64,000 bases of DNA from the NCBI GenBank assembly GCA_018830005.1, contig JAHJTE010000001.1, positions 257,332 to 321,331 on the forward strand, read 5' to 3'. Below are positions 7,028 to 49,089 of this stretch, one piece after another. The translations under genes and the position numbers were made by a program. The notes under the pieces were generated by a model. It did no database searches. It saw nothing but the letters and a program-made list of their open reading frames with translations, and was not told the origin of the DNA. Position 1 is the stretch's first letter, and each line of letters opens with the position of its first letter. This stretch comes from Candidatus Omnitrophota bacterium. Lineage in GTDB: Bacteria > Omnitrophota > Gorgyraeia > JAHJTE01.

Positions 7028-7798
7028 ATGAAAGCAATTATTATTGCCGCAGGCATGGGGAGTCGTTTGAGTCCATTAACACGTAGTCTGCCTAAATGTA
7101 TGTTGCAGTTTAAGGGTAAGTCACTTCTAGAGCGCCAGCTTGAAGTCTTTAAAGCAGTTAATATAAAGAACATCATCTTGATTAAGGGGTATAGAAAAGA
7201 AAAAATAGATTATCCTAAAATTAAATATTATATCAACGATGACTATGAGAATAATAATATATTGAATTCTTTATTCTATGCAGAGCAAGAGATAGTAGGG
7301 GATGTTATTGTTTCCTATTCAGATATTCTCTTTAAAAGAAGCGTATTAGAAAAACTGCTTACCTCAAAAAATGACATTTCAATCGTAGTGGATAGAGACT
7401 GGAAAGAGAGTTATAAAGGGCGTAAATATCACCCTCAGGAAGAGGCGGAAAAGGTCATACTGGATGCTAATAATAATGTTTTGGAGATAGGGAAGGTCCT
7501 ATCAAAAAATCATGCTGTTTCTGGAGAATTTATTGGTTTGATGAAACTTAGCTCAAGCGGCTCAGGAATATTCAGAGAACATTTTAAAAGAGTGAAAAAG
7601 ATTTATTGGGGAAAGCCTTTTCAGAAAGCCGCTATCTTTCAAAAGGCCTATTTAACCGACATGATTCAAGAGATGTTGGATTGCGGTGCAAAGATTAACT
7701 CTGTAGTCATTGAGGGTGGTTGGAGAGAAATCGATACGATTGAAGATTACGAGAAGGCCTTAAAGGAATTGGGGCAATGTAGTGAATCCCATGATTAA
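7028..7798 (+). CDS. LicC-like sugar/alcohol-phosphate cytidylyltransferase (NTP_transferase fold)
   Basis: Begins MKAIIIAAGMGSRLSPLT (the G-x-G-t-R-L nucleotide loop). The C-terminal region GGWREIDTIEDYEKAL resembles the W-x-E-I/D-D-x-x-DY region of the LicC, phosphocholine and inositol-phosphate cytidylyltransferase group; about 256 aa. Confidence 0.75.
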   Translation: MKAIIIAAGMGSRLSPLTRSLPKCMLQFKGKSLLERQLEVFKAVNIKNIILIKGYRKEKIDYPKIKYYINDDYENNNILNSLFYAEQEIVGDVIVSYSDILFKRSVLEKLLTSKNDISIVVDRDWKESYKGRKYHPQEEAEKVILDANNNVLEIGKVLSKNHAVSGEFIGLMKLSSSGSGIFREHFKRVKKIYWGKPFQKAAIFQKAYLTDMIQEMLDCGAKINSVVIEGGWREIDTIEDYEKALKELGQCSESHD

Positions 7799-9092
7799 AA
7801 ATTTTTCTAACGACAATGATGTAAAGAAGAAGCTTAAATATTGGCGCAGAAGAGTTTTTATTTCTCTTTGGATAACCTATGCCTCATTTTATTTATGTCG
7901 AGTGAATATCTCTATTGCAATCCCTGGGATGTTAGAAGAGTATGCTCTGACAAAGACAGCTATGGGCGTAATACTCAGTGCTCTATTTTCTGCCTATGCT
8001 CTGGGACAATTTATAAATGGACAGTTAGGAGATAAATTTGGAGCCAGAAAATTAATCGCTTTGGGAGCAGTTGTTTCTTCGATATTGAATTTGATCTTTC
8101 CTGTCCTTCCGGGAATTGTATCAGTTTTAGCAATAGTTTGGGGCTTAAATGGATATTTTCAATCCATGGGATGGGCACCCAGTACCAAGACGATAGCTAA
8201 TTGGTTTCCAAGAAGTAGCCGGGGTAAGATTACCGGTATCTTCGGCTCTTGCTATCAAGTTGGTAATGCTTTTAGCTGGGCCTTAGCTGGATTTGTGGTA
8301 GGGTTGTTCGGGTGGCGATTTGCCTTTTGGATTCCCGCGGTTATTCTTATGTTTATTGCAATACAATGGTTTATTAACGGTCGCAATGCTCCCGAAGAAT
8401 TGGGTTTGCCTACAGTTGAGGATTGCCGAAATGGGACCTTTGATGTCAGAGAGAAAGCAAAAGATGAACATTTAGGGTTTAAGTTTACAATGCGTACTGT
8501 GTTGAGTAATCCTCAGATTTGGATGACCGGATTTGCTTTATTCGGTTTAAATATTGTAAGATATGGTTTTATGAGTTGGGCTCCTACTTATATGTTTGAG
8601 ATGGAGAATGTATCTGTGTCAGTCGCAGCTTACAAGGCGATAGCTATACCACTTGTTGGTTCCTTGGGTGCTTTTTTTGCTGGGTGGATTTCGGATAAAT
8701 TCTTTCAATCTCGTAGAGCCCCGATAGTAGTCTTTATGCTCATAGGTCTTATGTTTTTTACTATAATCTATCCTCATCTAAAGCATTTGCATTGGATCTT
8801 TAGTCTAATTTGTCTTATGGCTATAGGATTTACGATATATGGTCCGCATGTAATGATCTGTGCTACAATCCCTATGGATTATGCTTCTCGTAAGGCAACT
8901 GCCTCGGCAGCGGGGTTTATCGATGGCTTAGGATATATTGGCGCCGCATTGACCGGAGTTATTTCAGGATTTTTAGTTGATAATTATGGATGGAATGCAG
9001 CGTTTTATTTTTGGGTGACAGCAGTCTTTTTAGCTGTAATTTTGATGTCTTTGCAGTGGAGATACATTCCTAAAAGTGGTAAATATGAATAA
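7782..9092 (+). CDS. MFS transporter, organophosphate:Pi antiporter (OPA; GlpT/UhpT-like) family
   Basis: 12 TM segments. The N-terminal region WRRRVFISLWITYASFYLCRVNISIA resembles the GlpT/UhpT signature (R-x-x-I/F-x-x-x-F-x-G-Y-x-x-x-Y-L-x-R-K-N-F); about 436 aa. Confidence 0.7.
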   Translation: MNPMIKNFSNDNDVKKKLKYWRRRVFISLWITYASFYLCRVNISIAIPGMLEEYALTKTAMGVILSALFSAYALGQFINGQLGDKFGARKLIALGAVVSSILNLIFPVLPGIVSVLAIVWGLNGYFQSMGWAPSTKTIANWFPRSSRGKITGIFGSCYQVGNAFSWALAGFVVGLFGWRFAFWIPAVILMFIAIQWFINGRNAPEELGLPTVEDCRNGTFDVREKAKDEHLGFKFTMRTVLSNPQIWMTGFALFGLNIVRYGFMSWAPTYMFEMENVSVSVAAYKAIAIPLVGSLGAFFAGWISDKFFQSRRAPIVVFMLIGLMFFTIIYPHLKHLHWIFSLICLMAIGFTIYGPHVMICATIPMDYASRKATASAAGFIDGLGYIGAALTGVISGFLVDNYGWNAAFYFWVTAVFLAVILMSLQWRYIPKSGKYE

Positions 9093-9101
9093 GAACTAGA
9101 G

Positions 9102-9818
9102 GTGGATATGTTTGAGAATTTAGGTGAGATAAAAAAGACACAGAAATCTATGGAATGGTGGACAGAGCTTGTTATATATAAGTTCTCAACCCCCTTAGTC
9201 TCGTTGCTTAAGGATACTTCCATAACTGCAAATCAACTCACTTTAATTTCGCTAAGTGTTGTGATAATCGCATCTTTCATAATAGCCTTGGGTAATTATG
9301 CAGGTTTAATAATAGCAGCAATCTTATTACAGATTAGTTTTATACTAGATAATGCGGATGGACAGCTGGCTCGATATAGGAAGCAGGCCTCTGCATTTGG
9401 TCACTGGCTAGATTCTACATGCGATAGACTCTGTGAACTTTTCATACTTATGGCTCTGACTTATAGATTTTCTTTTGCCAACGACAAGGCATTATTTTTC
9501 GGTTTTTTTAGCCTTTTTCTTATTTATTATTATAACGGATTAGAGTTAAGAAATCCTGCTTATGTTGATCCTAAAGAGAAAAACAAGATAGAGGCTAAAG
9601 AAGGTGCTTTTTTTAGTCAGCTTAGAGTAGTTAAGAATAGACTTAAATGGATACCCTTTAATACGGGAGAGCAATATTTTTTATTCTCGTTATTTTTGGT
9701 TTTGAATCGAATAGATCTCTTCTTTTACTTCTTTATATGTTACGGCAGCCTATTTATAATTTTTCTTAGCGCTTATAAATATTATCAATATAGATTGTTG
9801 ATGAGAGAAGGCCGTTGA
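9102..9818 (+). CDS. CDP-alcohol phosphatidyltransferase family protein
   Basis: Contains LDNADGQLARYRKQASAFGHWLDSTCDRLCE, which fits the family signature D-G-x2-A-R-x8-G-x3-D-x3-D exactly; polytopic membrane protein; the start follows a GAGGTGG ribosome-binding site. Confidence 0.8.
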   Translation: MDMFENLGEIKKTQKSMEWWTELVIYKFSTPLVSLLKDTSITANQLTLISLSVVIIASFIIALGNYAGLIIAAILLQISFILDNADGQLARYRKQASAFGHWLDSTCDRLCELFILMALTYRFSFANDKALFFGFFSLFLIYYYNGLELRNPAYVDPKEKNKIEAKEGAFFSQLRVVKNRLKWIPFNTGEQYFLFSLFLVLNRIDLFFYFFICYGSLFIIFLSAYKYYQYRLLMREGR

Positions 9819-9875: not shown

Positions 9876-10697
9876 ATGCTAATAATTCCTGCACTTTCCA
9901 TAATTATTCCTTCCCGAAACAGTTCTCGTAAAGAAATGAGCGATAAATTACTTTCTGATATCTCGAGGCAAAAAATAGATACCACAATAGAAATTCACCA
10001 GATTAAAGGGATTAGTACTGCCGGAAAAGCAAGGAATATAGGAGCGCAAAGGGCCAAAGGAGAGATCCTTATTTTCATTGATGATGATATTAGTATAGGA
10101 GACGATAAGGCGCTAACTAAACTAATAGAGCCTCTCATTGAGGATAAATCCATAGGCGCTACCTTTTCTGCTTTGCTTATTCCGTCAGATTCGTCGAGTT
10201 TCCAAAGGTCTTATGCAGATCAGATACCACGCTGTGAAATTCCGCCCGTAGATAAGACCACAGATGCCGGGGCAATGTCTACTCATTTTTGCGCAATAAG
10301 AAAAGATGTATTCTTTGGGGTAGGGCGATTTAATGAGAATTTAAAACGCGGCGAGGATCCGGAATTTTCCTTCCGCGCCAAAGGAAGAGAGCTTCGTTTG
10401 GTTCAGGTGGCAAACTTGATTTGTTTTCATGCTGTACCTAATAATTTAAGAGAAGTTGCGAGGCTGCACTTTAGAAACGGCGTCGCTTGTGCCTTTACCG
10501 ATAAGTACTATCCGCATCTAAATATTGATGTAGATCCGCAAAGCATACTAAATCCCGTAGGAAGGCAGATTCGGCTCTTTAGGGTGGGCAGATTCGTTTG
10601 TACTTTTTTTAGGTCAATTTTTAAAGGGCAATTTTTGCTCCTCCTTGCCAAGATAAGTTATATTGCAGGTTATTTTTTAGGCTGGATAAAGAAATGA
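9876..10697 (+). CDS. GT2-like glycosyltransferase (GT-A fold)
   Basis: Begins LSIIIPSRN; contains DDD and GED acidic motifs; C-terminal hydrophobic segment. Confidence 0.55.
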   Translation: MLIIPALSIIIPSRNSSRKEMSDKLLSDISRQKIDTTIEIHQIKGISTAGKARNIGAQRAKGEILIFIDDDISIGDDKALTKLIEPLIEDKSIGATFSALLIPSDSSSFQRSYADQIPRCEIPPVDKTTDAGAMSTHFCAIRKDVFFGVGRFNENLKRGEDPEFSFRAKGRELRLVQVANLICFHAVPNNLREVARLHFRNGVACAFTDKYYPHLNIDVDPQSILNPVGRQIRLFRVGRFVCTFFRSIFKGQFLLLLAKISYIAGYFLGWIKK

Positions 10698-12406
10698 AAG
10701 TTATCTTAATTCGTCCGCCATTTCCAGAACAAAATATGGCCATTCCCGCTGAGCCCTTAGGTTTAGCTTATCTAGCTGCATATCTTAAGAAGAATTTGCA
10801 AGATATAGATCTAGCTATAATTGATGCGAATACTCTTAATTTGTCAATTGAAGAAATTTTAGCTCAAATAAGAGATGTTGATGCTGTGGGTATCTCTTAC
10901 TTAACTGTGCAGGCGGACTTTGCTTATAGTTTATCTAAGAAAATTCGAGATAAGTTTCCTAAAGTTGCTATTATCCACGGTGGAGTGCATCCGACCTGTG
11001 TCTGGCAAGAGACTATGGATTTTTGCGATTATTGCGTATTAGGGGAAGGGGAGGTTACGTTAAGTGAACTCTTGCGTTGTTTAAGAGATAAAACTGATGC
11101 CAGAGAGGTTGAGGGAATCTGTTTTAAAAAAAATGGAAAAATTGTTAATACGCCAAGGCGTGAATTTATTTCCGATATAAATACAATACCTCATCCGGCA
11201 TGGGATTTGCTGGATATAGATAGATATAAGAATCACTCCATTCACGTAATGGCTGGCCAGGCGGTTGGTATTATGGCCTCTCGCGGCTGTCCGTTTAACT
11301 GTTCTTTTTGCGCATCTGCTCTTTTGTGGAAAAATAGAGTACGTTTTAGAGATCCACAGGATATAATCTTTGAAATAGAGCAAATTGTCAATAATTACAG
11401 GATAGATAAATTTCATTTCTACGATGATAATTTTCTCTTAAAAAAAGATTTTGTTTTCTCTCTGTGCGAAGAAATTCTAAAAAAAAAGTTACAAATTTTT
11501 TGGGTTTGCTTAGGGAGAATTTCTTCGATAGAGAGTTACCCGGATTTGTTGGACATAATGTATAAGGCCGGCTGCCGGGGGATAGAGTTAGGTATTGAGA
11601 GCTATGATGATGAGGTTCTAGAAAAAATCAGAAAAAAAGAGTCAACTGAACATATACCGCGAGTTTTTAATCTGCTTAAAGAAAAAAATATAAGCCCCCT
11701 GATGCTTCTAATGACATTTAATCCGGGTGAGACCATAACCGGATGGTATTATCAAGCGCTTAAACTTCGCCAAATTAATCCAGGGGCCGCAACATTTCTG
11801 GGACAATTTGCAACACCATATCCGGGTACAGAATTTGATAACACTTGCGCCAGAGATGGCTTAAAGCTCGTTACCGAATGGAAGGATTATTCTACAAGCC
11901 AGATAAACTTTTTGCCTTTTTCGCTTTTGAAAGACTCACCTAAGAAAACAACTGAGCGACTACAGCCTAAATTTTTGCTCAGAATAATCTACACTAGTTT
12001 AAATCATAATTTTTATTGGAAGAAGGCGAGTCTTTTTAAAAGACTAGAAGGTGCAGTTGTTTGGGCTAACTTTGTAATTTTTTTCTATCAAAAGTGCGGG
12101 CAAGGACCCTCTATTGAACAAATCGCCGGCCTGATGGGAGAGGAATTTAATCTGGATTTGAGATTAAGCCTAAAGGCAACGAGCTTTCTGACTGTGCTCA
12201 TGGCTCAGTTAGGCTTGATCCGCTCTGGAGGTTCAGAGAGGCAAGTCTCGCCATACGAAGAGGTCTTTAGTAAATTCAGAGTGTTTAAATATTTCTTTAA
12301 TCTGATTGCTATTATTCTATATTCGTTATCTGTAATTTCGCATAATGCCGTTAGAAGGGAAACCTTAGAGAGCAGAGATTTAATAATTTCACTTTTTGGA
12401 AAATAA
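10694..12406 (+). CDS. B12-binding-domain radical SAM protein
   Basis: N-terminal Rossmann-like cobalamin-binding domain (DAVGISYLT..., IIHGGVHPT) followed by the radical-SAM cluster motif C-P-F-N-C-S-F-C (C-x3-C-x2-C). 570 aa with a long C-terminal extension ending in a hydrophobic segment. Confidence 0.8.
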   Translation: MKVILIRPPFPEQNMAIPAEPLGLAYLAAYLKKNLQDIDLAIIDANTLNLSIEEILAQIRDVDAVGISYLTVQADFAYSLSKKIRDKFPKVAIIHGGVHPTCVWQETMDFCDYCVLGEGEVTLSELLRCLRDKTDAREVEGICFKKNGKIVNTPRREFISDINTIPHPAWDLLDIDRYKNHSIHVMAGQAVGIMASRGCPFNCSFCASALLWKNRVRFRDPQDIIFEIEQIVNNYRIDKFHFYDDNFLLKKDFVFSLCEEILKKKLQIFWVCLGRISSIESYPDLLDIMYKAGCRGIELGIESYDDEVLEKIRKKESTEHIPRVFNLLKEKNISPLMLLMTFNPGETITGWYYQALKLRQINPGAATFLGQFATPYPGTEFDNTCARDGLKLVTEWKDYSTSQINFLPFSLLKDSPKKTTERLQPKFLLRIIYTSLNHNFYWKKASLFKRLEGAVVWANFVIFFYQKCGQGPSIEQIAGLMGEEFNLDLRLSLKATSFLTVLMAQLGLIRSGGSERQVSPYEEVFSKFRVFKYFFNLIAIILYSLSVISHNAVRRETLESRDLIISLFGK

Positions 12407-12410
12407 GTTT

Positions 12411-13571
12411 ATGAAAAAAACGGACATTTTGTTTCTTACATTTGATTTTCCGCCTCAAGATGGGGGCATCTCTGTAATTATGAGCAGAATCTTCCGTTGT
12501 TTAGGAGAGAGAGCGCTAGTTTTAACTACAAATGTTTTTGGCGATAATGAAAGTAAGGGTTGCGAAACCAAGGCAAAAATTGTAAGGGAAAATTTTAATA
12601 TAAATGTGAATAATTTCAAATTATTGTTTGTAATATTTAAGGTTTTATTTAAGTCTTTAAGACTTCATGGAAAATTCAAGTTCAGGACCATATTAGTGGG
12701 GGAGGTATTCCCTTTAGGGCTTGTGGGGTTGTTTTTTAAATATTTTCTTAGAACTAATTTAGTTACATTTAGTCATGGCTCAGATTCGTTGTTTTCAAAA
12801 AATAAAATTAGAAATTATTTGGTAGGCATAGCCTATCGTAGTGCAGAGTATGTATTATGCTTCTCTGATTACACTAAAAATAACCTCTTAAAATGGAAGG
12901 TTAAAGAAGGAAGGATTAAAAAGATTTCTGCTGGGGTGGATACTGATCTTTTCAATCCTGAAGTAGACACCGCGCCAATAGAAAAAAGGTTTAATTTGAA
13001 AGACAAAAGAGTTATCTTGAGTGTGAATAGGCTGATAATTAGGAAAGGTATAGACACAGCAATAAAGTGTATGCCTCGTTTAATTAAAGAAGTCCCTTCA
13101 GTTTTCTATTTGATAGTAGGGGATGGCTCGGATAAAAAGCGCTTGGAAGATTTGGCCAAAGATCTTCATGTAGAAAATCATTGTTTGTTTGCCGGTAGCG
13201 TCAAGCAAGAGGATTTAGCCGTTTATTACTGCCTAAGCGAATTATTTTTAAATCTAGTGAGGGAAATAAAGAATCCTCTGGATCCCCAGACAGAAGGATT
13301 CGGCTTAATTAATATTGAGGCCGGCGCTTGTTCTAAGGCAGTAATTGCTGGGAAAACCGGTGGCGTAGTCGATGCGATAGAAGATAAAAGGACAGGTTTA
13401 CTTATCGACCCGTTAGATTTAGAGCAAATTACTAATGCCATTTTGCGGTTACTCAGAGACAGGCATTTTGCAAAAGAACTGGGAAAGAACGCTAGAGAGA
13501 AGGTTTTAAATGAGTTTAGGCTAGAGAATTTAAATCAGGATTTAGATAAAATATTACAAAATCTAAAATGA
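12411..13571 (+). CDS. glycosyltransferase GT4
   Basis: C-terminal EGFGLINIEAGACSKAVIAG (E-x-FG-x-x-x-EA motif). Paralog of the CDS at 20458-21606; both begin ..TFDFPP... The track start at 12396 is also possible. Confidence 0.8.
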   Translation: MKKTDILFLTFDFPPQDGGISVIMSRIFRCLGERALVLTTNVFGDNESKGCETKAKIVRENFNINVNNFKLLFVIFKVLFKSLRLHGKFKFRTILVGEVFPLGLVGLFFKYFLRTNLVTFSHGSDSLFSKNKIRNYLVGIAYRSAEYVLCFSDYTKNNLLKWKVKEGRIKKISAGVDTDLFNPEVDTAPIEKRFNLKDKRVILSVNRLIIRKGIDTAIKCMPRLIKEVPSVFYLIVGDGSDKKRLEDLAKDLHVENHCLFAGSVKQEDLAVYYCLSELFLNLVREIKNPLDPQTEGFGLINIEAGACSKAVIAGKTGGVVDAIEDKRTGLLIDPLDLEQITNAILRLLRDRHFAKELGKNAREKVLNEFRLENLNQDLDKILQNLK

Positions 13572-14512
13572 ATATTTCTATTGGCATAGTTAGCTGTAAT
13601 AATAGAGAAATACTTAGAAGATGTATAAAATCAATTTATGCTACTTGTCAAGATACTGATTTTGAAGTAATAGTTGTTGATAATAATTCTTCCGATAGAA
13701 GTCAAGAGATGCTTGTTGATGAATTTCCTGAAGTAAGAATAATAGAAAATAAACAAAATCTGGGTTTTGCCAAGTCAGTTAACCAAGCGATAAGGCAGGC
13801 GCGAGGAAAATTCCTATTTTTAGGAAATGAAGACATAATTTTTAGCCCCGACTGCCTCAGAAGCATGACTGAATATATGAAAGCTAACCCCAAGGTTGGG
13901 ATATTAGGACCAAAAATCATAAATGAAAAAGGCACAACGGAGATGTCTTTTAATAAAAAGTGTTCTAATATTATCCGCTGTATTTTGGATAATCTGTTTT
14001 TTTATTCTTATTTGCGCGCACATTTAGTTGAAAAATATCTTATAAAGAAATTTTCTCCTTTAGTTAAAAAAGGATTACAGGAGATCAAGCAGGTAGCCTG
14101 GGTTTCTGGTGCAGCTTTTCTCCTGCGTAAATCTGCAACAGAAAAAGTAGGTCTTATGGATGAAAGCTTTTTTATGTACTGTGAAGATGAGGATTTTGGT
14201 TGTCGGATGACAAACGCTGGTTGGCAAGTGCATTTCTTCCCCCGGGGAGTTATTACTCATTCGCGAGGAAGCAGCACTCAAAAAAGTCCGGTTAATTTTA
14301 CATTCGAAGCTACAAAGAGCCAGGTAATTTTTTACAGGAAAAGATATAATCGAATTGCTCTAGTCCTAGTAAAGGCGTTACTTTTTTATAGACTAACAGT
14401 GGAATTGGTATTTTTGTGCATTTACAGCTTATTTTCAAAAAACTTAAGGAAGTTAATAAGCAGAAAGCAAAAAAATTATATTTTTACTATTCATAAACTT
14501 TTTTTTATTTAA
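13568..14512 (+). CDS. glycosyltransferase GT2
   Basis: Begins ISIGIVSCNN with FEVIVVDNNSSD (D-x-D region) and a conserved C-terminal GT-A region. Confidence 0.8.
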   Translation: MNISIGIVSCNNREILRRCIKSIYATCQDTDFEVIVVDNNSSDRSQEMLVDEFPEVRIIENKQNLGFAKSVNQAIRQARGKFLFLGNEDIIFSPDCLRSMTEYMKANPKVGILGPKIINEKGTTEMSFNKKCSNIIRCILDNLFFYSYLRAHLVEKYLIKKFSPLVKKGLQEIKQVAWVSGAAFLLRKSATEKVGLMDESFFMYCEDEDFGCRMTNAGWQVHFFPRGVITHSRGSSTQKSPVNFTFEATKSQVIFYRKRYNRIALVLVKALLFYRLTVELVFLCIYSLFSKNLRKLISRKQKNYIFTIHKLFFI

Positions 14513-14525
14513 GGACTTAGAGTAA

Positions 14526-15476
14526 ATGGAAGAAGTTAAGTGTCTGATTTGTGATAGGAAAGAGACTAAGCATTATAGAAATATTAAGTGTTCTAAGCCT
14601 AGGCAGGTGAGTTTTACTCTCCTTCAGTGTAATGTTTGCGGATTGATATATTTAAATCCCCGGCCAGATAAGCGCGAGATGCAGGAATTCTATCCTTTTT
14701 GGCCAGAGGGCGGGGGCAGGCAAGAAGGAATTAAACTAGATTGGAAGTCAAAAAGAAAAAAAGTTAATTTACTAAGAAATATTTTAGCAAAAAGAGGCAA
14801 TGTGCTGGATATTGGAGCAGGCGCAGGTGAGTTTTTAAGCATTATGCAGGGGCTGGGTTGGCAGGCCTACGGCATAGAGTTTGCTAAAGTGACTTCCAAT
14901 TATGCCAGAGAAAAGCTTGCTTTAAACGTATTAAGCAAAGATCTTCTAGGGGCAAATTTTGAATCAGATTTTTTTGATTTAATTACTTTTTGGGATGTGA
15001 TTGAGCATCTACATAAGCCTAAAGAGACCTTGCTTGAGATTAATAGAATTTTAAAAAAGGAGGGGCTGTTGGTAATATCAGCTCCAAACATCGATAATCT
15101 ATGGGCTTATATTTTTAAAGATTATTGGTACACAAATTCGCCCCGGCATCTTTATCAGTTTAGCCCAAGGACTATCTTAAGGTTATTAGAGGGTGCCGAT
15201 TTTAAAGTAGTTAATATTATTCAGCGTGCCGGATTTTTTGAACCAGTAGGCTTTGTGGTAACTTTTAAGAATTGGCTCTTAGCTAGTTTAAGAGGGGATA
15301 GCCGTAACTTAAATTCAAGTTCGGCATTTGCTCAAGATGCTAGATTAAATAAACTCGCAAGCCCAATAAAGCAATTCATGCGTTTAATTTTGGAGGCAGC
15401 ATTTTTTCCATTTTCGCTAATAAGCGTATTGCTTGAGAAAGCTCCAAACATGATTATTTTTGCAAGAAAATGCTAG
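14526..15476 (+). CDS. class I SAM-dependent methyltransferase with N-terminal C4 zinc-ribbon
   Basis: Begins CLICDRKET...CNVCGLIYLNP (a Cys4 ribbon), followed by methyltransferase motif I LDIGAGAGEF and motif II LITFWDVIEHL. Confidence 0.7.
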   Translation: MEEVKCLICDRKETKHYRNIKCSKPRQVSFTLLQCNVCGLIYLNPRPDKREMQEFYPFWPEGGGRQEGIKLDWKSKRKKVNLLRNILAKRGNVLDIGAGAGEFLSIMQGLGWQAYGIEFAKVTSNYAREKLALNVLSKDLLGANFESDFFDLITFWDVIEHLHKPKETLLEINRILKKEGLLVISAPNIDNLWAYIFKDYWYTNSPRHLYQFSPRTILRLLEGADFKVVNIIQRAGFFEPVGFVVTFKNWLLASLRGDSRNLNSSSAFAQDARLNKLASPIKQFMRLILEAAFFPFSLISVLLEKAPNMIIFARKC

Positions 15477-22295: not shown

Positions 22296-23482
22296 TGATT
22301 TTAAAAAAAGTTCCTATAGTTGCTACAGACTTTAATATCCCTGATATCTTTTCAGTCTTTAGGGGTTTTAAGGCCAAGGAAAGATTCGAGAAAGAATTAG
22401 CCGCCTCTCTAGGTTTAAAATATGTTTTTACTGTTGATTCTGGCACTAGCGCTTTTTATCTTATATTAAAGGCGCTATCTTCAACTTATCCGGATAAAAA
22501 AGAAGTTGTTTTGCCTGCCTATACTGCTGCCTCATTGGTTTTACCTATAAAAAGATTGGGCTTAAAAATAGTTCTCTGTGATATTTCCTTGGATACTTTT
22601 AACCTAGATATAGAAGGTCTTAATAATTTGATCTCAAAAAATACTCTCTGTGTAACTGTAGTGCATCTATTTGGCTTGGTCTTTGATTTAGAGGCTTTTA
22701 GTAGTATTATCAAACGAAAAGGGATAGATACTATTATCGTTGAAGATTGCGCTCAAGCTTTAGGCTCTTTCATAAACAAACGATCTGTTGGTTCTGGAAG
22801 CGATGTGAGCCTTTTTAGTTTTAATCGAGGTAAAAATATGTCTACTGCTTCGGGTGGTGCAATAGGCGCAAATGATGATAGGTTGGCCGATTTGATTAGA
22901 AAAGAGATAAACATCTTAAGGGGCCCGTCAATTTTTAATAAGTTTATGATTATTGTAAAACTTATTTTGCTTTCTTTGGTTGTAAGGCCACTTATATATA
23001 ATTGTCTTTATCACGTATTAAAGACCTTTAGAAGCACAAAGACACCTATGGATTTTTCTGTCTCAAATTATACAGATGTACAATCTAGGGTCGGATTATC
23101 TTTATTAAAGAGATTGCATCTTTTTAGTAAAGCAAGACATTCAAACGGCTCGTTTCTTTATGATTTATTAAGTAATAAGCAGGATCTTATTATTCCTCAT
23201 ATTCTTAATCTCAGCATACCAGCCTATAATCGTTTTCCTGTTATATTCAGAGATATCCAGGTAAAAAAGAGGATTAGGACAATTCTTTCTGAAGCAGGCA
23301 TAGATAGTTCAGAGATGTATGAGCAGCCTTTGCATTTTAAATTCAATCTCGGATATAAAAAAGGAGATTTCCCTAATGCAGAATTTATTGCTGAAAGGCT
23401 TCTTACGTTGCCGAGCCATCCTTTAGTAAATAAGGCTATGTTGAATTTAATGCGGAAAATTTTTGATGAAAATTTGCAATGA
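22295..23482 (+). CDS. DegT/DnrJ/EryC1/StrS-family PLP-dependent sugar aminotransferase
   Basis: Contains SFNRGKNMSTASGGAI (the family's S-F-H-x-x-K-x-l-x-x-G-E-GG-A Schiff-base lysine region) and DCAQALGS. TAATG stop/start overlap with the upstream methyltransferase. Confidence 0.8.
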   Translation: MILKKVPIVATDFNIPDIFSVFRGFKAKERFEKELAASLGLKYVFTVDSGTSAFYLILKALSSTYPDKKEVVLPAYTAASLVLPIKRLGLKIVLCDISLDTFNLDIEGLNNLISKNTLCVTVVHLFGLVFDLEAFSSIIKRKGIDTIIVEDCAQALGSFINKRSVGSGSDVSLFSFNRGKNMSTASGGAIGANDDRLADLIRKEINILRGPSIFNKFMIIVKLILLSLVVRPLIYNCLYHVLKTFRSTKTPMDFSVSNYTDVQSRVGLSLLKRLHLFSKARHSNGSFLYDLLSNKQDLIIPHILNLSIPAYNRFPVIFRDIQVKKRIRTILSEAGIDSSEMYEQPLHFKFNLGYKKGDFPNAEFIAERLLTLPSHPLVNKAMLNLMRKIFDENLQ

Positions 23483-24642
23483 GTCTGATTAAAAGCTTAA
23501 AAAGAAAGATTTATAAGGCTGCCAGAGAGCCGGCTTACGCCTTGGCTGTTTTAATAAAGAGATTCGCCTCCTTATTTAGTTATTATGTTTTTCAAGGTAG
23601 AAGCAGTTGGCCCGAGACGGTTTCTTTGTTTTTGACTTACCGTTGCAATTTGGCTTGTTCGATGTGCGGCTATTGGGGAAAGTGCGGCTCTTTGAAAGAT
23701 AAAAAGGAGGATTGCCTTAGAGAAGATTTGAATCTTCAAGATTTAGAAAAGATTATCGATGATATAGCAGGCCTTGCGCCGAATATTACTCTTTTTGGCG
23801 GAGAACCGTTTCTCTATCCAGACTGGCCGGTGCTTGTAAAATATATAAAAAATAAAGGATTGCGTTGTAATGTCGTTACTAATGGTACGCTCCTTGCCGC
23901 AAGAGAGCAGGAGGTAATCGATTCTGGTCTTGATGAAATTATTTTTTCCTTAGAGGGCACACAGGAAATTCATGATAAGATTACCAATACCTTAGGTTCA
24001 TTTGATAAGGCCTTTAATGCACTTAGTAAGATTGCAAAGTTAAAGAAAATGAATAATCTGAGGTTACCCAAGATTAATGTTGCCACTACAATTTCGGAAG
24101 ATAATTTCTCTAATCTTTATGAAATATTTAAGACAGCAGAAAAACTCTCACCCGATACTATAACCTTTCATCATCTCTCTTTTGTGGATAGAGAAAGCGT
24201 TGCCAAAACCAATCGGATACTTAAAGATAATTTTGGCATACTAAGCCGAGATTGGGAAGGTTTCATCAGGAATGAACTGCCAAAGATTGATACCGCTGTC
24301 TTAATTGAAGAGATTAAAAAGATAGAGAGTTACCCGAAGGCTTGCGGTGTGTTTTTCTACCCTGATTTTAGACAAAAAGAAATAATAGAATACTACAAAG
24401 ATTTTAATTTTAAATCAAAACAATTTGCCAATCGTTGCTTAAGTCCCTGGATGACTGTTTACATATTCCCTGATGGAAAGGTGGGCCCTTGCGAGGAGTT
24501 GAATATTTATTTTGGCAATATAAAGAAAGAAAGTTTTAAGGACATTTGGAATAATCAGCAGTTTTGCAAATTCAGAAAGATTTTAAAGAGAGAGAGAATT
24601 TTTCCAGTTTGTACTCGCTGTACTGAGTTGTATCGATTCTGA
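23479..24642 (+). CDS. radical SAM protein with C-terminal Cys-rich SPASM/twitch-like auxiliary-cluster domain
   Basis: Radical-SAM cluster motif C-N-L-A-C-S-M-C (C-x3-C-x2-C) with a following GGEP motif. The C-terminal region carries additional cysteines (C..PW...C at about 321, C at about 340, C-x2-C-x5+ in FPVCTRCTELY). Confidence 0.75.
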   Translation: MSLIKSLKRKIYKAAREPAYALAVLIKRFASLFSYYVFQGRSSWPETVSLFLTYRCNLACSMCGYWGKCGSLKDKKEDCLREDLNLQDLEKIIDDIAGLAPNITLFGGEPFLYPDWPVLVKYIKNKGLRCNVVTNGTLLAAREQEVIDSGLDEIIFSLEGTQEIHDKITNTLGSFDKAFNALSKIAKLKKMNNLRLPKINVATTISEDNFSNLYEIFKTAEKLSPDTITFHHLSFVDRESVAKTNRILKDNFGILSRDWEGFIRNELPKIDTAVLIEEIKKIESYPKACGVFFYPDFRQKEIIEYYKDFNFKSKQFANRCLSPWMTVYIFPDGKVGPCEELNIYFGNIKKESFKDIWNNQQFCKFRKILKRERIFPVCTRCTELYRF

Positions 24643-24644
24643 AG

Positions 24645-25811
24645 ATGAAGAAAATAAAAATTATCCACATCATTACCCGCTTGGACAGGGGCGGTTCTTC
24701 AAGGATAGTACTGGATATTACAAAGTCCTTAAATAAGGATGATTTTAGTCAAAAGATTATCAGTGGGTTGACTAAAGATCCGGAGCAGGATTTGAATGAA
24801 TTTAGTAAACAGAGCGGGGTTCAAATTATATTCCTAGATTGCCTACGCAGAGATATTAATATCTTTTTAGATTTTTTTAGCTTGTTTAAATTGTATCGGT
24901 TGATTAAGAGAGAAAAGCCAGACATTATTCATACCCATACTTCCAAGGCAGGTTTTTTGGGTCGCTTAGCAGCAAGGATGGCTAAGGTAGAGGTTATTAT
25001 TTATATGCCACACGGCAATATTTTTTATGGCTACGCCGGAGCGTTATTATCTAGATTATTCGAAATACTTGAGCGATTTTGTGCTAATTTTACCGATATA
25101 ATCGTTACGCTTACTGATATTGGAAAGAAAGAGTTTCTTTCTAGGGGCATTGGGGGGCAAGAAAAGTTTGTCACGATTCATAATGGAATAGATTTTAAAG
25201 AATATGAACAAATTAATCTTAGAAGAGTAGAACAGTTAAAACAGGAGTTTAAGATAGCGAAAGATTGTGCTGTAGTCACTACTGTATCCAGGCTTGAGTC
25301 AGTTAAGGGGATAGAATTTTTTATTAAGGCTTTAAAACAGTTGGATAAAACCGGTGCTAATTTTAAGGCATTAATAGTGGGGGAAGGTTCCCTAAAGACT
25401 AAATTAGTAAAGTTTGCTAGGGTATTAGATTTGGAAGACAAAATTATTTTTTTAGGTTTCAGAGAAGATATAAAAGAGATTATTGCTTTATCTGATTGCG
25501 TAGTGAATCCAGCCTTAAATGAGGGCTTTGGCTTGGTTATTTTAGAGGCGTTTGCCTTAGCTAAGCCAGTCATCGCTACCCGGGTAGGAGGGGTGAGGGA
25601 GATTGTGGAAGATAATAATACAGGTATCCTTGTTCAGCCAGCAAATCCCGATGAGCTGACAGAGGCAATTGTCGAGGTTTTACAAAATAAAGAGAAGACA
25701 AAAGCATTAACATCTCAGGCGAAAACTAAATTAGAAAAAGAGTTTACAAAAGAAAAAATGTTAGCAAGCTTTAGAGACCTATACTTAAATCTTGCAAAGG
25801 GTAAAAAATAG
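24645..25811 (+). CDS. glycosyltransferase GT4
   Basis: Contains EGFGLVILEAFALAKPVIATRVGG, the classic GT4 motif. Confidence 0.85.
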   Translation: MKKIKIIHIITRLDRGGSSRIVLDITKSLNKDDFSQKIISGLTKDPEQDLNEFSKQSGVQIIFLDCLRRDINIFLDFFSLFKLYRLIKREKPDIIHTHTSKAGFLGRLAARMAKVEVIIYMPHGNIFYGYAGALLSRLFEILERFCANFTDIIVTLTDIGKKEFLSRGIGGQEKFVTIHNGIDFKEYEQINLRRVEQLKQEFKIAKDCAVVTTVSRLESVKGIEFFIKALKQLDKTGANFKALIVGEGSLKTKLVKFARVLDLEDKIIFLGFREDIKEIIALSDCVVNPALNEGFGLVILEAFALAKPVIATRVGGVREIVEDNNTGILVQPANPDELTEAIVEVLQNKEKTKALTSQAKTKLEKEFTKEKMLASFRDLYLNLAKGKK

Positions 25812-29836: not shown

Positions 29837-30451
29837 ATGAACATATTGGCAATCGGTGCGCATCCGGATGATATTGAATTTGGCTGCGGTGGGACATTAT
29901 TGAAATATACTAAGGCCAAAAATAATGTTTATCTTTTAATTTTAACTAAAGGAGAAATCGGAGCCTCTGGCGCTAGGCGATGTCAAGAGCAGAAAGAATC
30001 CGCTAAATTCTTAAAAGCAAAACGCGTTTTTTGGGGGAATTATAAGGACACTAAAATATGTTTAACCAAAGAGTTGATTGGAAAGATCGAGGCAATATTG
30101 AATAAGGTTAAGCCAGAGATTGTCTTATTTAATGCTCCTTCTGATATCCATCAAGATCACAGGGTGGTTGCAGAGGCCGCTATTTCAGCTACAAGATATA
30201 TAAAGAAGGTCTTATTTTATGAGGTCCCGACTACTATTGGCTTTGAGCCGGATATATTTGTTGATATTGGTGATATTATCTTTGAAAAACTCCAACTCCT
30301 AAAGTTGCATCGTTCTCAAGTGCATAAGACAAGAGTCCCAGGCTTAAGTATAATGGATAGTGCGACCTCTTGTGCAAATTTCAGGGGTTTTCAGGGGCGA
30401 GTGAAGTATGCTGAGGGATTCAAGGCCTTAAGGTTTATGTTAGAGTCATGA
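29837..30451 (+). CDS. PIG-L/LmbE-family N-acetylglucosaminyl deacetylase
   Basis: Begins MNILAIGAHPDDIEFGCGGTL (the AHPDDE zinc-binding signature), with later HQDH. Confidence 0.8.
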   Translation: MNILAIGAHPDDIEFGCGGTLLKYTKAKNNVYLLILTKGEIGASGARRCQEQKESAKFLKAKRVFWGNYKDTKICLTKELIGKIEAILNKVKPEIVLFNAPSDIHQDHRVVAEAAISATRYIKKVLFYEVPTTIGFEPDIFVDIGDIIFEKLQLLKLHRSQVHKTRVPGLSIMDSATSCANFRGFQGRVKYAEGFKALRFMLES

Positions 30452-46600: not shown

Positions 46601-46654
46601 TATTTACACAGATACTTACTTATATCTGTGTTGAAAAGAAAGGAAGGAAAAAGT

Positions 46655-47821
46655 ATGCACAAAGAAAAAATATTTTTTACATCTGAATCAGTAACAGAAG
46701 GTCATCCCGATAAGTTGTGTGATCAGGTTTCTGATTCTATTCTTGATGAGGTATTGAAACAAGATCCTGCTGGACGCGTCGCCTGTGAGACATATGTAAC
46801 TATGGGTTTGATTATTGTCGGTGGAGAAATCACAACCTCTAGTTATATTGATGTTCATGGCGTTACCAGAAATACTATTCGTGAGATTGGCTATGACTCG
46901 CCTAAGTACGGATTTGATTATAAAACCTGTGCCATACTTAATGCGATACATGCACAGTCTCCCGATATTGCCCAGGGTGTTGATCGTGGCGGAGCAGGCG
47001 ACCAAGGCATGATGATTGGTTATGCCTGCGATGAGACCGATGAGCTTATGCCTCTGTCCATAGTCCTGGCCCATAAATTGGTGTCTAGGTTAACGCATGT
47101 GCGAAAAAATAATATTTTAAAATTCTTAGGGCCTGATGGTAAATCCCAAGTTACAGTTCAATATGAGGCAGGCAGACCGGTTCGAGTAGATTCGATAGTT
47201 CTGGCAACGCAACATACAGAAACTGTTCTTGATAAGACAGGTACAAAAATGAAACCTTCTGCCAAGGCTGTAATTATTGACAAGGTTGCTAGGCCTGTTT
47301 TAGGCAGATGGATAGATAAGAAGACTAAGTTTTTTATTAATGAAACGGGTAAGTTCCTTGTTGGTGGTCCCCAGAGTGATACGGGTATGACTGGCAGAAA
47401 GATTATTGTGGATACTTATGGTGGTGTTGTTGCTCATGGTGGCGGTGCCTTTTCAGGTAAAGACCCATCAAAGGTAGATAGATCAGCAGCATATATGGCA
47501 CGCTATATAGCAAAGAATATTGTTGCGGCAAAATTGGCCAAGAGATGCTTAATTCAGCTTTCCTATTGTATTGGGAGGGCTGATCCATTATCGATAATGG
47601 TTGACACTTATCAAACATCTAAAATCTCCGATAGTAAATTAGTAAGCTTAGTGAGAAAGGTCTTTCCGTTAACGCCGCGGGGAATAATCAATTGTCTGGA
47701 TCTTTTAAGACCCATTTATAAGCAGACGGCTGCTTATGGCCATTTTGGCCGTAGCGCTAGTTTTGGTTTTAACTGGGAAAGAACAGATAAAGTAAAGGAG
47801 CTATTAAAGGAACTAAAATGA
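46655..47821 (+). CDS. metK: S-adenosylmethionine synthetase
   Basis: Begins [20 protein letters not shown] and contains [12 protein letters not shown] 46655 follows the ribosome-binding site AAAGGAAGG. Confidence 0.9.
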
Positions 47822-49089
47822 AAAAAAATTACGATATAAAAGATATACGCCTTTCTAAAAAGGGTCGCGCAAGAATCGAGTGGGCAGAAAGGGACATGAA
47901 GGTTACCTCCGGAATTCGCGAGAGATTCAAAAAGGAGAGGCCTTTAGCCGGAGTAAGAATTACTGCTTGTTTGCATGTGACGACTGAAACAGCAAATTTA
48001 ATGCGGGTTTTAAAAGCAGGCGGCGCCAAGGTTAATTTATGTGCTTCAAATCCCTTAAGTACTCAGGATGATGTGGCTGCTTCGCTCGTGCATGATTTTA
48101 ACATTAGTGTCTTTGCCATTAAAGGTGAAGATAAACGCACATACTATAAGCACATTGTTAATGCACTTGCTATAAGGCCTCAGATTACTATGGATGACGG
48201 AGCAGATTTAGTATCCACCTTACATAAAGAGCCTTTAAGATTTGGTATAGATTCATGCATAGGAGGAACAGAGGAGACTACAACTGGAGTTATTAGATTG
48301 CGGGCGATGCAGGAAGATAACGCCTTATCTTATCCCATAATTGCTGTTAATGATGCCCAGACAAAATATATGTTTGACAATCGCTATGGCACTGGTCAGT
48401 CAACTATTGACGGAATAATTCGCTCCACCAATAGATTACTGGCTGGATCGAATTTTGTTGTCTGCGGTTATGGTTGGTGCGGTAGGGGCGTTGCTATGCG
48501 CGCCAAAGGCATGGGCGCTAAGGTTATAATTGTCGAGGTAGATGCCTTGAGGGCCTTGGAAGCGACTATGGATGGTTTTAGGGTAATGCCGCTATCCCAT
48601 GCAGCAAAGATTGGTGACATATTTTTAACTACCACAGGCGATATAAATGTAATTGATGAAAAAGACTTCCACCTCATGAAAGACGGCGCTATAGTTGCCA
48701 ATTCCGGACATTTTAATGTAGAAATAAATATTGTTGCTTTAAAGAAGATGAGTAAAAGCGTAAGGCCGATTAGGGACTTTGTGCTTGAGTATACATTAAA
48801 GAAAAATAACAAAAAGATTTACATCCTAAGCGAGGGAAGATTAGTTAATCTTGCTGCTGCTGAAGGCCATCCGGCGCAAGTTATGGATATGAGCTTTGCT
48901 AATCAGGCGTTGTGCGCTGAATATATTTTTAAGAATAGTAAAAGTTTAGAAAACAAGGTTTATCCTGTGCCTTTAGATATTGATAAAGGGATCGCCAAAT
49001 TAAAGCTGGATTCTATGGGAATAAAGATAGATACCTTAAGTCCAGAGCAACGGAAATATTTATCGAGCTGGCAGCAGGGAACACTCTAA
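47818..49089 (+). CDS. ahcY: adenosylhomocysteinase
   Basis: Contains an NAD-binding GYGWCGRG motif and conserved AhcY N- and C-terminal regions. Confidence 0.9.

Follow-up and report, generated by a model that had tools for sequence, protein, structure and literature searches.

The 64,000-nt stretch of a Candidatus Omnitrophota genome analysed here (contig JAHJTE010000001.1, positions 257,332 to 321,331; hereafter the window, with coordinates counted from its first letter) carries at 10694..12406 (+) a gene for a 570-aa radical S-adenosylmethionine (SAM) enzyme of class B, the class with a B12-binding domain. This enzyme, referred to below as the rSAM, is a member of an uncharacterised class B subfamily with its own C-terminal domain and a recurrent glycosyltransferase (GT) partnership. 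The class of enzyme is already known, and what is new is a subfamily without any characterised member. The rSAM probably modifies a sugar by radical chemistry. More tentatively, and with slightly less than even confidence, we read it as a functional tailoring enzyme within a glycosyltransferase assembly line for a glycan of the lipopolysaccharide (LPS)-core/O-antigen type, with C-methylation as the likeliest outcome.

Domain architecture and family assignment

The open reading frame (ORF) at 10694..12406 (+) was confirmed in the window, and a chance ORF is excluded because a database protein is 99% identical to its product (encoded in the Candidatus Omnitrophota metagenome-assembled genome GCA_043815545.1) and about 4000 homologues exist. 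Pfam scanning placed a Rossmann-type B12-binding domain at residues 20–126 (10751..11071, +; PF02310, 66.6 bits against a cut-off of 32.1) and the radical SAM core at residues 196–348 (11279..11737, +; PF04055, 78.6 bits against a cut-off of 29.5). The [4Fe-4S] cluster motif CPFNCSFC, of the CX3CX2C type, occupies residues 199–206 (nt 11288–11311), and its cysteines C199, C203 and C206 are invariant across 114 homologues. The description of this gene in the initial annotation, as a 570-aa B12-binding radical SAM enzyme of class B with this motif, was thus borne out by the domains, the motif position and the predicted fold (see below).

The classical B12 motif is partly kept, with SxL (S68-x-L70) and GG (G96-G97) present and the DxHxxG part absent, as read from the sequence; in the same 114 sequences G96 is invariant and G97 and H99 are nearly so. 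Absence of DxHxxG is usual in class B enzymes, which bind cobalamin in the base-off/His-off state. Given this and the retained SxL...GG, cobalamin binding by the rSAM is plausible. A B12-type domain is also present in AprD4, where cobalamin is unused.

None of the curated NCBIfam cut-offs was reached by the rSAM. The best match was BchE (TIGR02026; 194 bits against 481, E = 5e-57, aligned residues 3–381), followed by the Sden_1168 P-methylase (115.7 against 575), ApyD (109 against 750), HpnJ (TIGR03471; 108.9 against 577.6), PhpK (104.4 against 600), BzaD (100 against 450), the ladderane-lipid radical SAM enzyme (TIGR04072; 95.9 against 360), HpnR (TIGR04367; 86.9 against 650), C-methyltransferases of ribosomally synthesised and post-translationally modified peptides (RiPPs; 81.5 against 282), the AprD4 family (NF033070; 76 against 500) and KedN5 (63.9 against 700).

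Phylogenetic placement

Homologues split into two groups by length. Members of the long group (520–715 aa) align over ~ 90% of the query at 33–56% identity and come from Omnitrophota, Aureabacteria, Coatesbacteria, Hydrogenedentes, Riflebacteria/Ozemobacteraceae, Aminicenantes, Nitrospinota, Planctomycetes, Dependentiae and others, whereas the short group (about 450–500 aa) is mostly archaeal and from the candidate phyla radiation, with alignments that end at about residue 400–430. A neighbour-joining tree was built from 461 well-occupied columns; it carries no bootstrap values and is to be read as rough. The reference enzymes in it were BchE (two sequences) and HpnJ (one sequence), all taken from plasmid records, and for other class B families the curated profile scores served as the comparison. 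Within the long group the rSAM formed a subclade with proteins P0002–P0004 and P0009. The two genuine BchE sequences, one of them from inside a puh-bch-hemN cluster, fell outside the target clade, and HpnJ was placed within the short group. Pairwise identity of the rSAM was 29% to BchE (residues 1–333 only) and 26% to HpnJ.

This placement bears on the label carried by databases, in which homologues appear as BchE, the anaerobic Mg-protoporphyrin IX monomethyl ester cyclase. BchE is indeed the best NCBIfam match, several homologues have been so named by the Joint Genome Institute (JGI), and the best annotated tblastn matches on plasmids are bchE genes. The probability that the rSAM is BchE is nevertheless negligible, and the orthology was rejected: the profile score is well short of its cut-off, the 29% identity to a BchE from a photosynthesis cluster is confined to the first 333 residues, both references branch separately, and the context is wrong, with no chlorophyll genes in the window and a glycan setting instead.

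According to the initial annotation, clustering with BchE or with lipid-modifying clades would have spoken against a carbohydrate substrate. In a strict sense the rSAM does neither, lying outside the BchE and HpnJ branches with low identity and sub-cut-off scores. On the lipid side this is qualified by moderately close archaeal relatives that resemble enzymes modifying glycerol dialkyl glycerol tetraether (GDGT) lipids. These relatives (~ 470–490 aa; Desulfurococcales, Acidilobus, Thermoproteota) adjoin ~ 500-aa radical SAM/SPASM proteins in loci L030, L033, L034, L040, L041, L043, L052, L055, L058, L060, L064, L065, L074 and L085. The same arrangement has been reported for H-GDGT methylase and ring synthase genes with the bridge synthase Hbs, in hgm/grs-hbs clusters (bioRxiv 10.1101/2023.10.20.563219). 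The archaeal short relatives are probably GDGT lipid-modifying genes.

Association with glycosyltransferases

The gene for the rSAM is embedded in a block of five. Immediately upstream lies a GT2 glycosyltransferase gene (9876..10697, +; Pfam, synteny) that overlaps the start of the rSAM gene by 4 nt (ATGA), and directly downstream a GT4 gene (12411..13571, +; Glycos_transf_1, 123.9 bits), for which the ATG at 12411 of the public gene call is a more likely start than the mechanically called TTG at 12396. A second GT2 gene (13568..14512, +; Pfam, synteny) follows, and the block ends with a class I SAM methyltransferase (14526..15476, +; Methyltransf_23, 94.2 bits). ORF coordinates and Pfam matches therefore agree with the overlap and the downstream gene order first noticed for this region.

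The order GT2-rSAM-GT4-GT2-methyltransferase was kept in four Omnitrophota genomes, the rSAM proteins of which are 52–56% identical. A GT2 gene stands immediately upstream of the rSAM in all five subclade loci, the ATGA overlap is found again in L001 and L094, orthologues of the GT4 come after the rSAM in L001, L007 and L094, and the position of the methyltransferase matches in L001 and L094. The genes upstream of the block differ, being an NTP-transferase, a major facilitator superfamily (MFS) transporter and a CDP-alcohol transferase in the window and a methyltransferase plus a choline-kinase-like gene in the others. The fifth member of the subclade, P0009, has the order GT4-GT2-rSAM.

Outside the subclade, ORFs were called in 80 loci from species-representative genomes together with metagenome loci, and GT4 genes were found with an iterated hidden Markov model. 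A same-strand GT4, either adjacent or fused, accompanied the rSAM in 17 of 27 long-group loci versus 4 of 61 loci of the shorter relatives (Fisher odds ratio 24, p = 5e-8, uncorrected for relatedness). Two subclade loci stand outside this count, one with an adjacent GT4 and one with a GT4 two genes away, and leave the picture unchanged. The surroundings of the adjacent rSAM–GT4 pairs were of at least ten kinds, and either gene may come first.

Fusion of the two enzymes was seen in three independent proteins, one in the order GT4-B12-rSAM (P0107, L003:10001-12553, 850 aa) and two in the order B12-rSAM-GT4 (L010:189-2759, 856 aa; L020:11726-14452, minus strand, 908 aa). Other family members are fused to a class I methyltransferase (L079:9986-12352, 788 aa) or to a second radical SAM/SPASM unit (L010:2851-5868, 1005 aa). 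The conserved block, the enrichment of GT4 across many phyla and the rSAM–GT4 fusions together provide strong evidence that the long-clade rSAM is functionally tied to glycosyltransferases, as the initial annotation had supposed from one locus.

A single GT4 orthologous group partnering the rSAM everywhere was considered and holds in part only. Partner GT4s in other phyla form an orthologous group of their own (35–63% identity, fused in L020), to which none of the five GT4s of the window belongs; the association is therefore one of a class B radical SAM enzyme of this family with a glycosyltransferase, with no fixed pair.

The contexts of individual family members varied. In the Coatesbacteria-like loci L012, L013, L015 and L017 (e.g. 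L013:9977-12981), a stand-alone rSAM and GT4 pair sits just after nusA-infB, outside glycan loci, which hints at a housekeeping glycolipid or envelope function for such pairs. A small protein of 170–300 aa with no Pfam match lies beside the rSAM–GT4 pair in several phyla (L005:13241-13756, L023:12929-13528, L022:7650-8171, L032:3776-4387 and L021:1535-2419; 25–57% identity). It was rejected as a conserved third part of the module, being found in these five loci only and absent from the window. PIG-L deacetylase genes abut family members in L002 and L088. In L088 (7219-16161) the long-clade protein P0054 (524 aa, without the hydrophobic tail described below) is encoded inside a nonribosomal peptide synthetase/polyketide synthase (NRPS/PKS) cluster, its gene overlapping the upstream PIG-L deacetylase gene, and the NRPS downstream of it has a B12-binding domain match itself. 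In L089 the family member is surrounded by a sugar-nucleotide set with SIS, epimerase and transketolase genes.

Predicted structure and C-terminal region

An AlphaFold (AF2) model of the rSAM built on 114 homologues was very confident (predicted local distance difference test (pLDDT) 94.8, predicted template modelling score (pTM) 0.93). In a Foldseek search of the model, the top 17 PDB matches were all class B enzymes (CysS, TsrM, AprD4, TokK, OxsB and MgmA; E = 2e-21 to 5e-18), with CysS, TokK and TsrM at about 1e-21, and MiaB-type enzymes came next at 1e-11. The best target-normalised TM-score was that of AprD4 (PDB 6fd2; 0.74, root-mean-square deviation 3.4 Å, 437 columns). AprD4 was also the best PDB match by sequence (E = 5e-13), the others being CysS, TokK, MgmA (9ccb), OxsB and TsrM. 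The predicted overall fold can thus confidently be assigned to class B, with methylases (CysS, TsrM, TokK, MgmA) and non-methylases (AprD4, OxsB) fitting the model equally well.

Beyond the radical SAM core, conservation and model helices delimit a clade-specific C-terminal helical domain at residues ~ 415–515 (11936..12238, +), ending in Q505-x-G507-L-I. Both the domain and the motif are conserved in 31 full-length homologues of the long clade, the modelled helices span residues 425–438, 447–467, 474–485 and 489–505, and the domain is missing from the ~ 470-aa relatives. The view that a C-terminal extension of ~ 100 aa is atypical did not stand: solved class B enzymes have 417–731 residues and every one carries C-terminal domains, and residues ~ 415–515 are conserved within the protein's own clade.

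The hydrophobic tail noted at the same time was confirmed, with a mean Kyte-Doolittle value of 1.92 over residues 530–548. Residues 526–554 (12269..12355, +) are helical in the model, and basic residues flank this last helix, which is a putative membrane anchor. It is restricted to the four Omnitrophota orthologues, similar tails being found only in P0002–P0004. When the C-terminal 157 aa alone were searched against 1.84 billion representatives, in a single-sequence and not a profile search, the matches were limited to the orthologue P0004 and a pair of giant repeat proteins. The latter (P0121 and P0122; 3071 and 2772 aa, with MBG/Listeria-Bacteroides-type repeats; E = 5e-17 and 1e-8) were rejected as spurious, their scores being the sum of a weak match of 28% identity over 36 aa repeated seven times; they exemplify repeat-driven false positives in single-sequence searches.

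The modelled C-terminal helices may resemble a helix-turn-helix-like recognition module, a feature that would suit maturation of a peptide or protein (a RiPP-type C-methylase or a glycoprotein pathway) next to glycosyltransferases by accident. Sub-threshold matches to the RiPP methylases ApyD and TIGR03975 point the same way, as does the one family member inside an NRPS/PKS cluster. We consider this explanation very improbable: GT adjacency and fusions dominate the contexts, and no conserved precursor-peptide-like small ORF lies beside the gene, the 170–300-aa neighbour being confined to a few other phyla and absent from the window.

The surrounding locus

Almost every gene between position 1 and about 38.5 kb lies on the plus strand and relates to envelope glycans. 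Among them are a Wzy_C-type O-antigen ligase, two polysaccharide deacetylases, two Wzx-type flippases, five GT4, three GT2-family and two GT9 heptosyltransferase-like genes, a DegT aminotransferase, a SPASM-type radical SAM enzyme, WbqC, a PIG-L deacetylase (29837-30451), a WecA/MraY-type initiating transferase, LpxB and an MsbA-like ATP-binding cassette (ABC) transporter. The locus is an LPS-core/O-antigen-type region of a diderm bacterium, in keeping with the surface-glycan locus proposed initially, for which the Wzy_C ligase, Wzx, GT9, WecA-like, LpxB and MsbA-like genes are the telling members.

LpxB and the MsbA-like gene are at the same time compatible with modification of a lipid and not of a sugar, i.e. 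of a glycolipid hydrocarbon, lipid A or a polyprenyl carrier, with the GT4 supplying the head group only. Class B enzymes are known from archaeal and bacterial membrane-lipid pathways (GrsA/B, Hgm, HpnP/R, ladderane-type). The hydrophobic tail helix, the profile matches to HpnR, HpnJ and the ladderane-lipid enzyme, the stand-alone rSAM and GT4 pairs outside glycan loci, which would fit a glycolipid, and sub-threshold matches of the partner GT4s to glycolipid synthases such as GlcNAc-phosphatidylglycerol synthase all agree with a lipid substrate. So do the archaeal relatives at ~ 30–33% identity, which stand beside a ~ 500-aa radical SAM/SPASM gene as in the hgm/grs-hbs clusters (bioRxiv 10.1101/2023.10.20.563219). 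The target clade is, however, apart from the short clade that holds these archaeal relatives, every lipid-family profile score is far under its cut-off, and genes of lipid synthesis are not among the direct neighbours. In the subclade the gene is most tightly and most consistently accompanied by the two GT2s, the GT4 and the methyltransferase, at the centre of a set of glycan assembly genes, and we regard a lipid substrate as improbable.

Several other features of the locus were recorded. The row at 7028-9818 comprises the NTP-transferase, a GlpT/PgtP-like MFS organophosphate transporter and a CDP-alcohol phosphatidyltransferase. Its two enzymes each match one half of the model for a bifunctional inositol-1-phosphate cytidylyltransferase/DIPP synthase, at 53 and 56 bits and so far under the cut-off of 580. 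This points to activation and transfer of a CDP-alcohol by separate proteins, served by a dedicated importer; the glycan would perhaps receive a phospho-alcohol group in this way. The SPASM-type radical SAM enzyme (387 aa, 23479-24642) is preceded by the DegT aminotransferase and directly followed by a GT4 (23479-25811), and the locus hence holds two different radical SAM enzymes, both beside GT4 genes. A conserved trio of B12-rSAM, GT4 and SPASM-type enzyme was examined and discarded, as the SPASM enzymes near family members are 20–28% identical to one another and are not orthologues. About 35 kb downstream of this locus rich in SAM enzymes, metK (SAM synthetase) and ahcY (S-adenosylhomocysteine hydrolase) are adjacent at 46628-49089, a proximity that is probably coincidence.

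Proposed function

To our knowledge, the characterised glycoside-directed relatives (GenK, GenD1, AprD4, HpnJ and Cds) all act after glycosyl transfer and not on nucleotide sugars; HpnJ and Cds are both treated in a review (PMC13459092). In the mechanism proposed here, the [4Fe-4S] cluster on C199, C203 and C206 would cleave SAM reductively to yield a 5'-deoxyadenosyl radical, which would take a hydrogen from a sugar residue at an unactivated carbon. That residue would sit on a membrane-bound, lipid-linked intermediate made by the flanking GT2 and GT4 enzymes, and the hydrophobic C-terminal helix would keep the enzyme at the membrane. We infer hydrogen abstraction from a lipid-linked sugar because the radical SAM site is complete, the fold is of class B and the coupling to glycosyltransferases in a glycan locus is tight. 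The likeliest single outcome would be transfer of a methyl group from methylcobalamin, bound by the N-terminal domain, to give a C-methylated (branched) sugar. Most characterised class B enzymes are methylases, several of them acting on glycosides (GenK, GenD1, MoeK5), and it is mainly on account of this prior that C-methylation is ranked first, at something under an even chance.

A number of observations weigh against this reading. The rSAM meets no methylase family cut-off, its best curated profile being that of the cyclase BchE, and the structure search does not tell methylases apart from AprD4 and OxsB; in fact AprD4, which is a dehydratase and does not methylate, ranked first both by target-normalised TM-score (0.74) and by PDB sequence E-value. 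Within 7 kb there are three class I methyltransferases, and one relative carries such an enzyme as a fusion partner, so that the rSAM need not be the methyl donor. The GT4 of the window is not orthologous to the partner GT4 group of other phyla, sequence alone cannot reveal cobalamin binding, and the source organism is uncultured. The C-methylated sugar product anticipated by the initial annotation is thus not established, the more so as known glycoside-directed relatives also dehydrate or ring-contract (PMC13459092).

In the same setting and on the same kind of glycoside substrate, the rSAM could instead catalyse a radical rearrangement or redox step with no methylation. Candidate reactions are contraction of a hexose or hexosamine ring to a carbocyclic cyclitol (HpnJ/Cds-like), 1,2-diol dehydration to a deoxy sugar (AprD4-like) and oxidation or cyclisation (BchE-like). 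An outcome of this kind is less likely than not and ranks second, not far behind C-methylation. It is favoured by the rank of AprD4 in both PDB comparisons and by the presence of BchE (194 bits) and HpnJ (109 bits) among the top curated profiles, which all remain far under their cut-offs, as does that of AprD4. The hpnI(GT)-hpnJ-hpnK row shares the layout of the window, with a GT immediately upstream of a class B radical SAM gene, and the PIG-L deacetylases at L002, L088 and window positions 29837-30451 recall the GT/deacetylase/rSAM logic of HpnI/K/J and of aminoglycoside pathways; yet HpnJ is only 26% identical to the rSAM and groups with the short clade, and the upstream GT2, tried as an HpnI homologue, has no similarity to it. 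Class I methyltransferases are plentiful in the block as it is, which again fits a different role for the rSAM, while methylation is the commonest class B outcome among characterised enzymes. Ring contraction, oxidation and cyclisation are all listed among the reactions of cobalamin (Cbl)-dependent radical SAM enzymes in a review (PMC13459092).

Significance

Nothing returned by full-text literature searches placed a cobalamin-type radical SAM enzyme in O-antigen, capsule, LPS or polysaccharide biosynthesis, an absence that is not proof. The characterised glycoside-directed class B members that we know of all belong to antibiotic or membrane-lipid pathways, and we know of none shown in a surface polysaccharide or LPS pathway. 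Among known C-H functionalisations, those carried out by class B enzymes include several of the most demanding, and the majority of these enzymes are uncharacterised.

A broader and rather doubtful proposal is that the long-clade rSAM with its adjacent or fused glycosyltransferase forms a widespread, unrecognised module that installs a radically modified sugar (C-branched or ring-contracted/carbocyclic) into envelope glycans or glycolipids. Its range, equally conjectural, would cover mostly uncultured phyla, including Omnitrophota, Coatesbacteria, Riflebacteria/Ozemobacteraceae, Hydrogenedentes, Aminicenantes, Nitrospinota, Planctomycetes and Dependentiae. If true, LPS/O-antigen-type biosynthesis would have its first tailoring step by a cobalamin-type radical SAM enzyme. 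Study of the five-gene block would reveal which unusual sugars these uncultured bacteria display. Should the reaction be plain methylation, the gain would be the annotation of a new subfamily; a carbocycle or a deoxygenation would amount to a new type of envelope glycan chemistry. For specialists the surprise would be moderate, since class B enzymes of uncharacterised function abound and the source bacterium is an uncultured one. The conserved and sometimes fused rSAM–GT pair across many candidate phyla, together with a testable five-gene block, offers a concrete target that goes beyond routine annotation.

Comparison with known systems

BchE shares with the rSAM the N-terminal B12 domain and the radical SAM core, and is its best curated profile, with 29% identity over residues 1–333. 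It differs in the score (194 versus 481 bits), in unrelated C-terminal domains and in its separate branch, and the setting of the rSAM gene is not one of photosynthesis genes.

The methylases GenK/GenD1/MoeK5 and Fom3/PhpK/CysS/TokK are alike in enzyme class and fold, CysS, TokK and TsrM matching the model at E of about 1e-21, and enzymes of the GenK/GenD1/MoeK5 type set the precedent for C-methylation of glycosides. At the level of families the rSAM reaches neither PhpK (104 versus 600 bits) nor KedN5 (64 versus 700 bits), the structural comparison was made via CysS, TokK and TsrM, and the GenK/GenD1/MoeK5-type enzymes act in secondary-metabolite pathways and not in cell-envelope glycan loci.

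AprD4 (6fd2), a 1,2-diol dehydratase acting on paromamine, is the best PDB match in sequence (E = 5e-13) as well as in structure (target-normalised TM-score 0.74), and the glycoside on which it acts is produced by a GT4 together with a PIG-L deacetylase. Unlike the rSAM it is 454 aa long and without the C-terminal domain, and as a matter of general knowledge makes no use of cobalamin; the score of the rSAM against its family is 76 versus 500 bits.

The likeness to GrsA/B, Hgm and Cds is judged from gene arrangement, in that the archaeal relatives (~ 30–33% identity) adjoin Hbs-like radical SAM/SPASM genes; unlike the rSAM, these relatives are without the C-terminal domain and without GT adjacency. 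Cds turns a lipid-bound hexose into a cyclopentane polyol (PMC13459092).

HpnJ, the radical SAM enzyme of hopanoid cyclitol-ether formation that works with the glycosyltransferase HpnI and with HpnK, differs from the rSAM in its sequence (26% identity, 109 versus 578 bits) and in its grouping with the ~ 470-aa clade, and there are no hopanoid genes at the rSAM of the window. It is nevertheless a class B-type enzyme encoded directly after a glycosyltransferase and acting on a lipid-bound amino sugar, and thereby offers the closest analogy to the rSAM in gene layout and logic.

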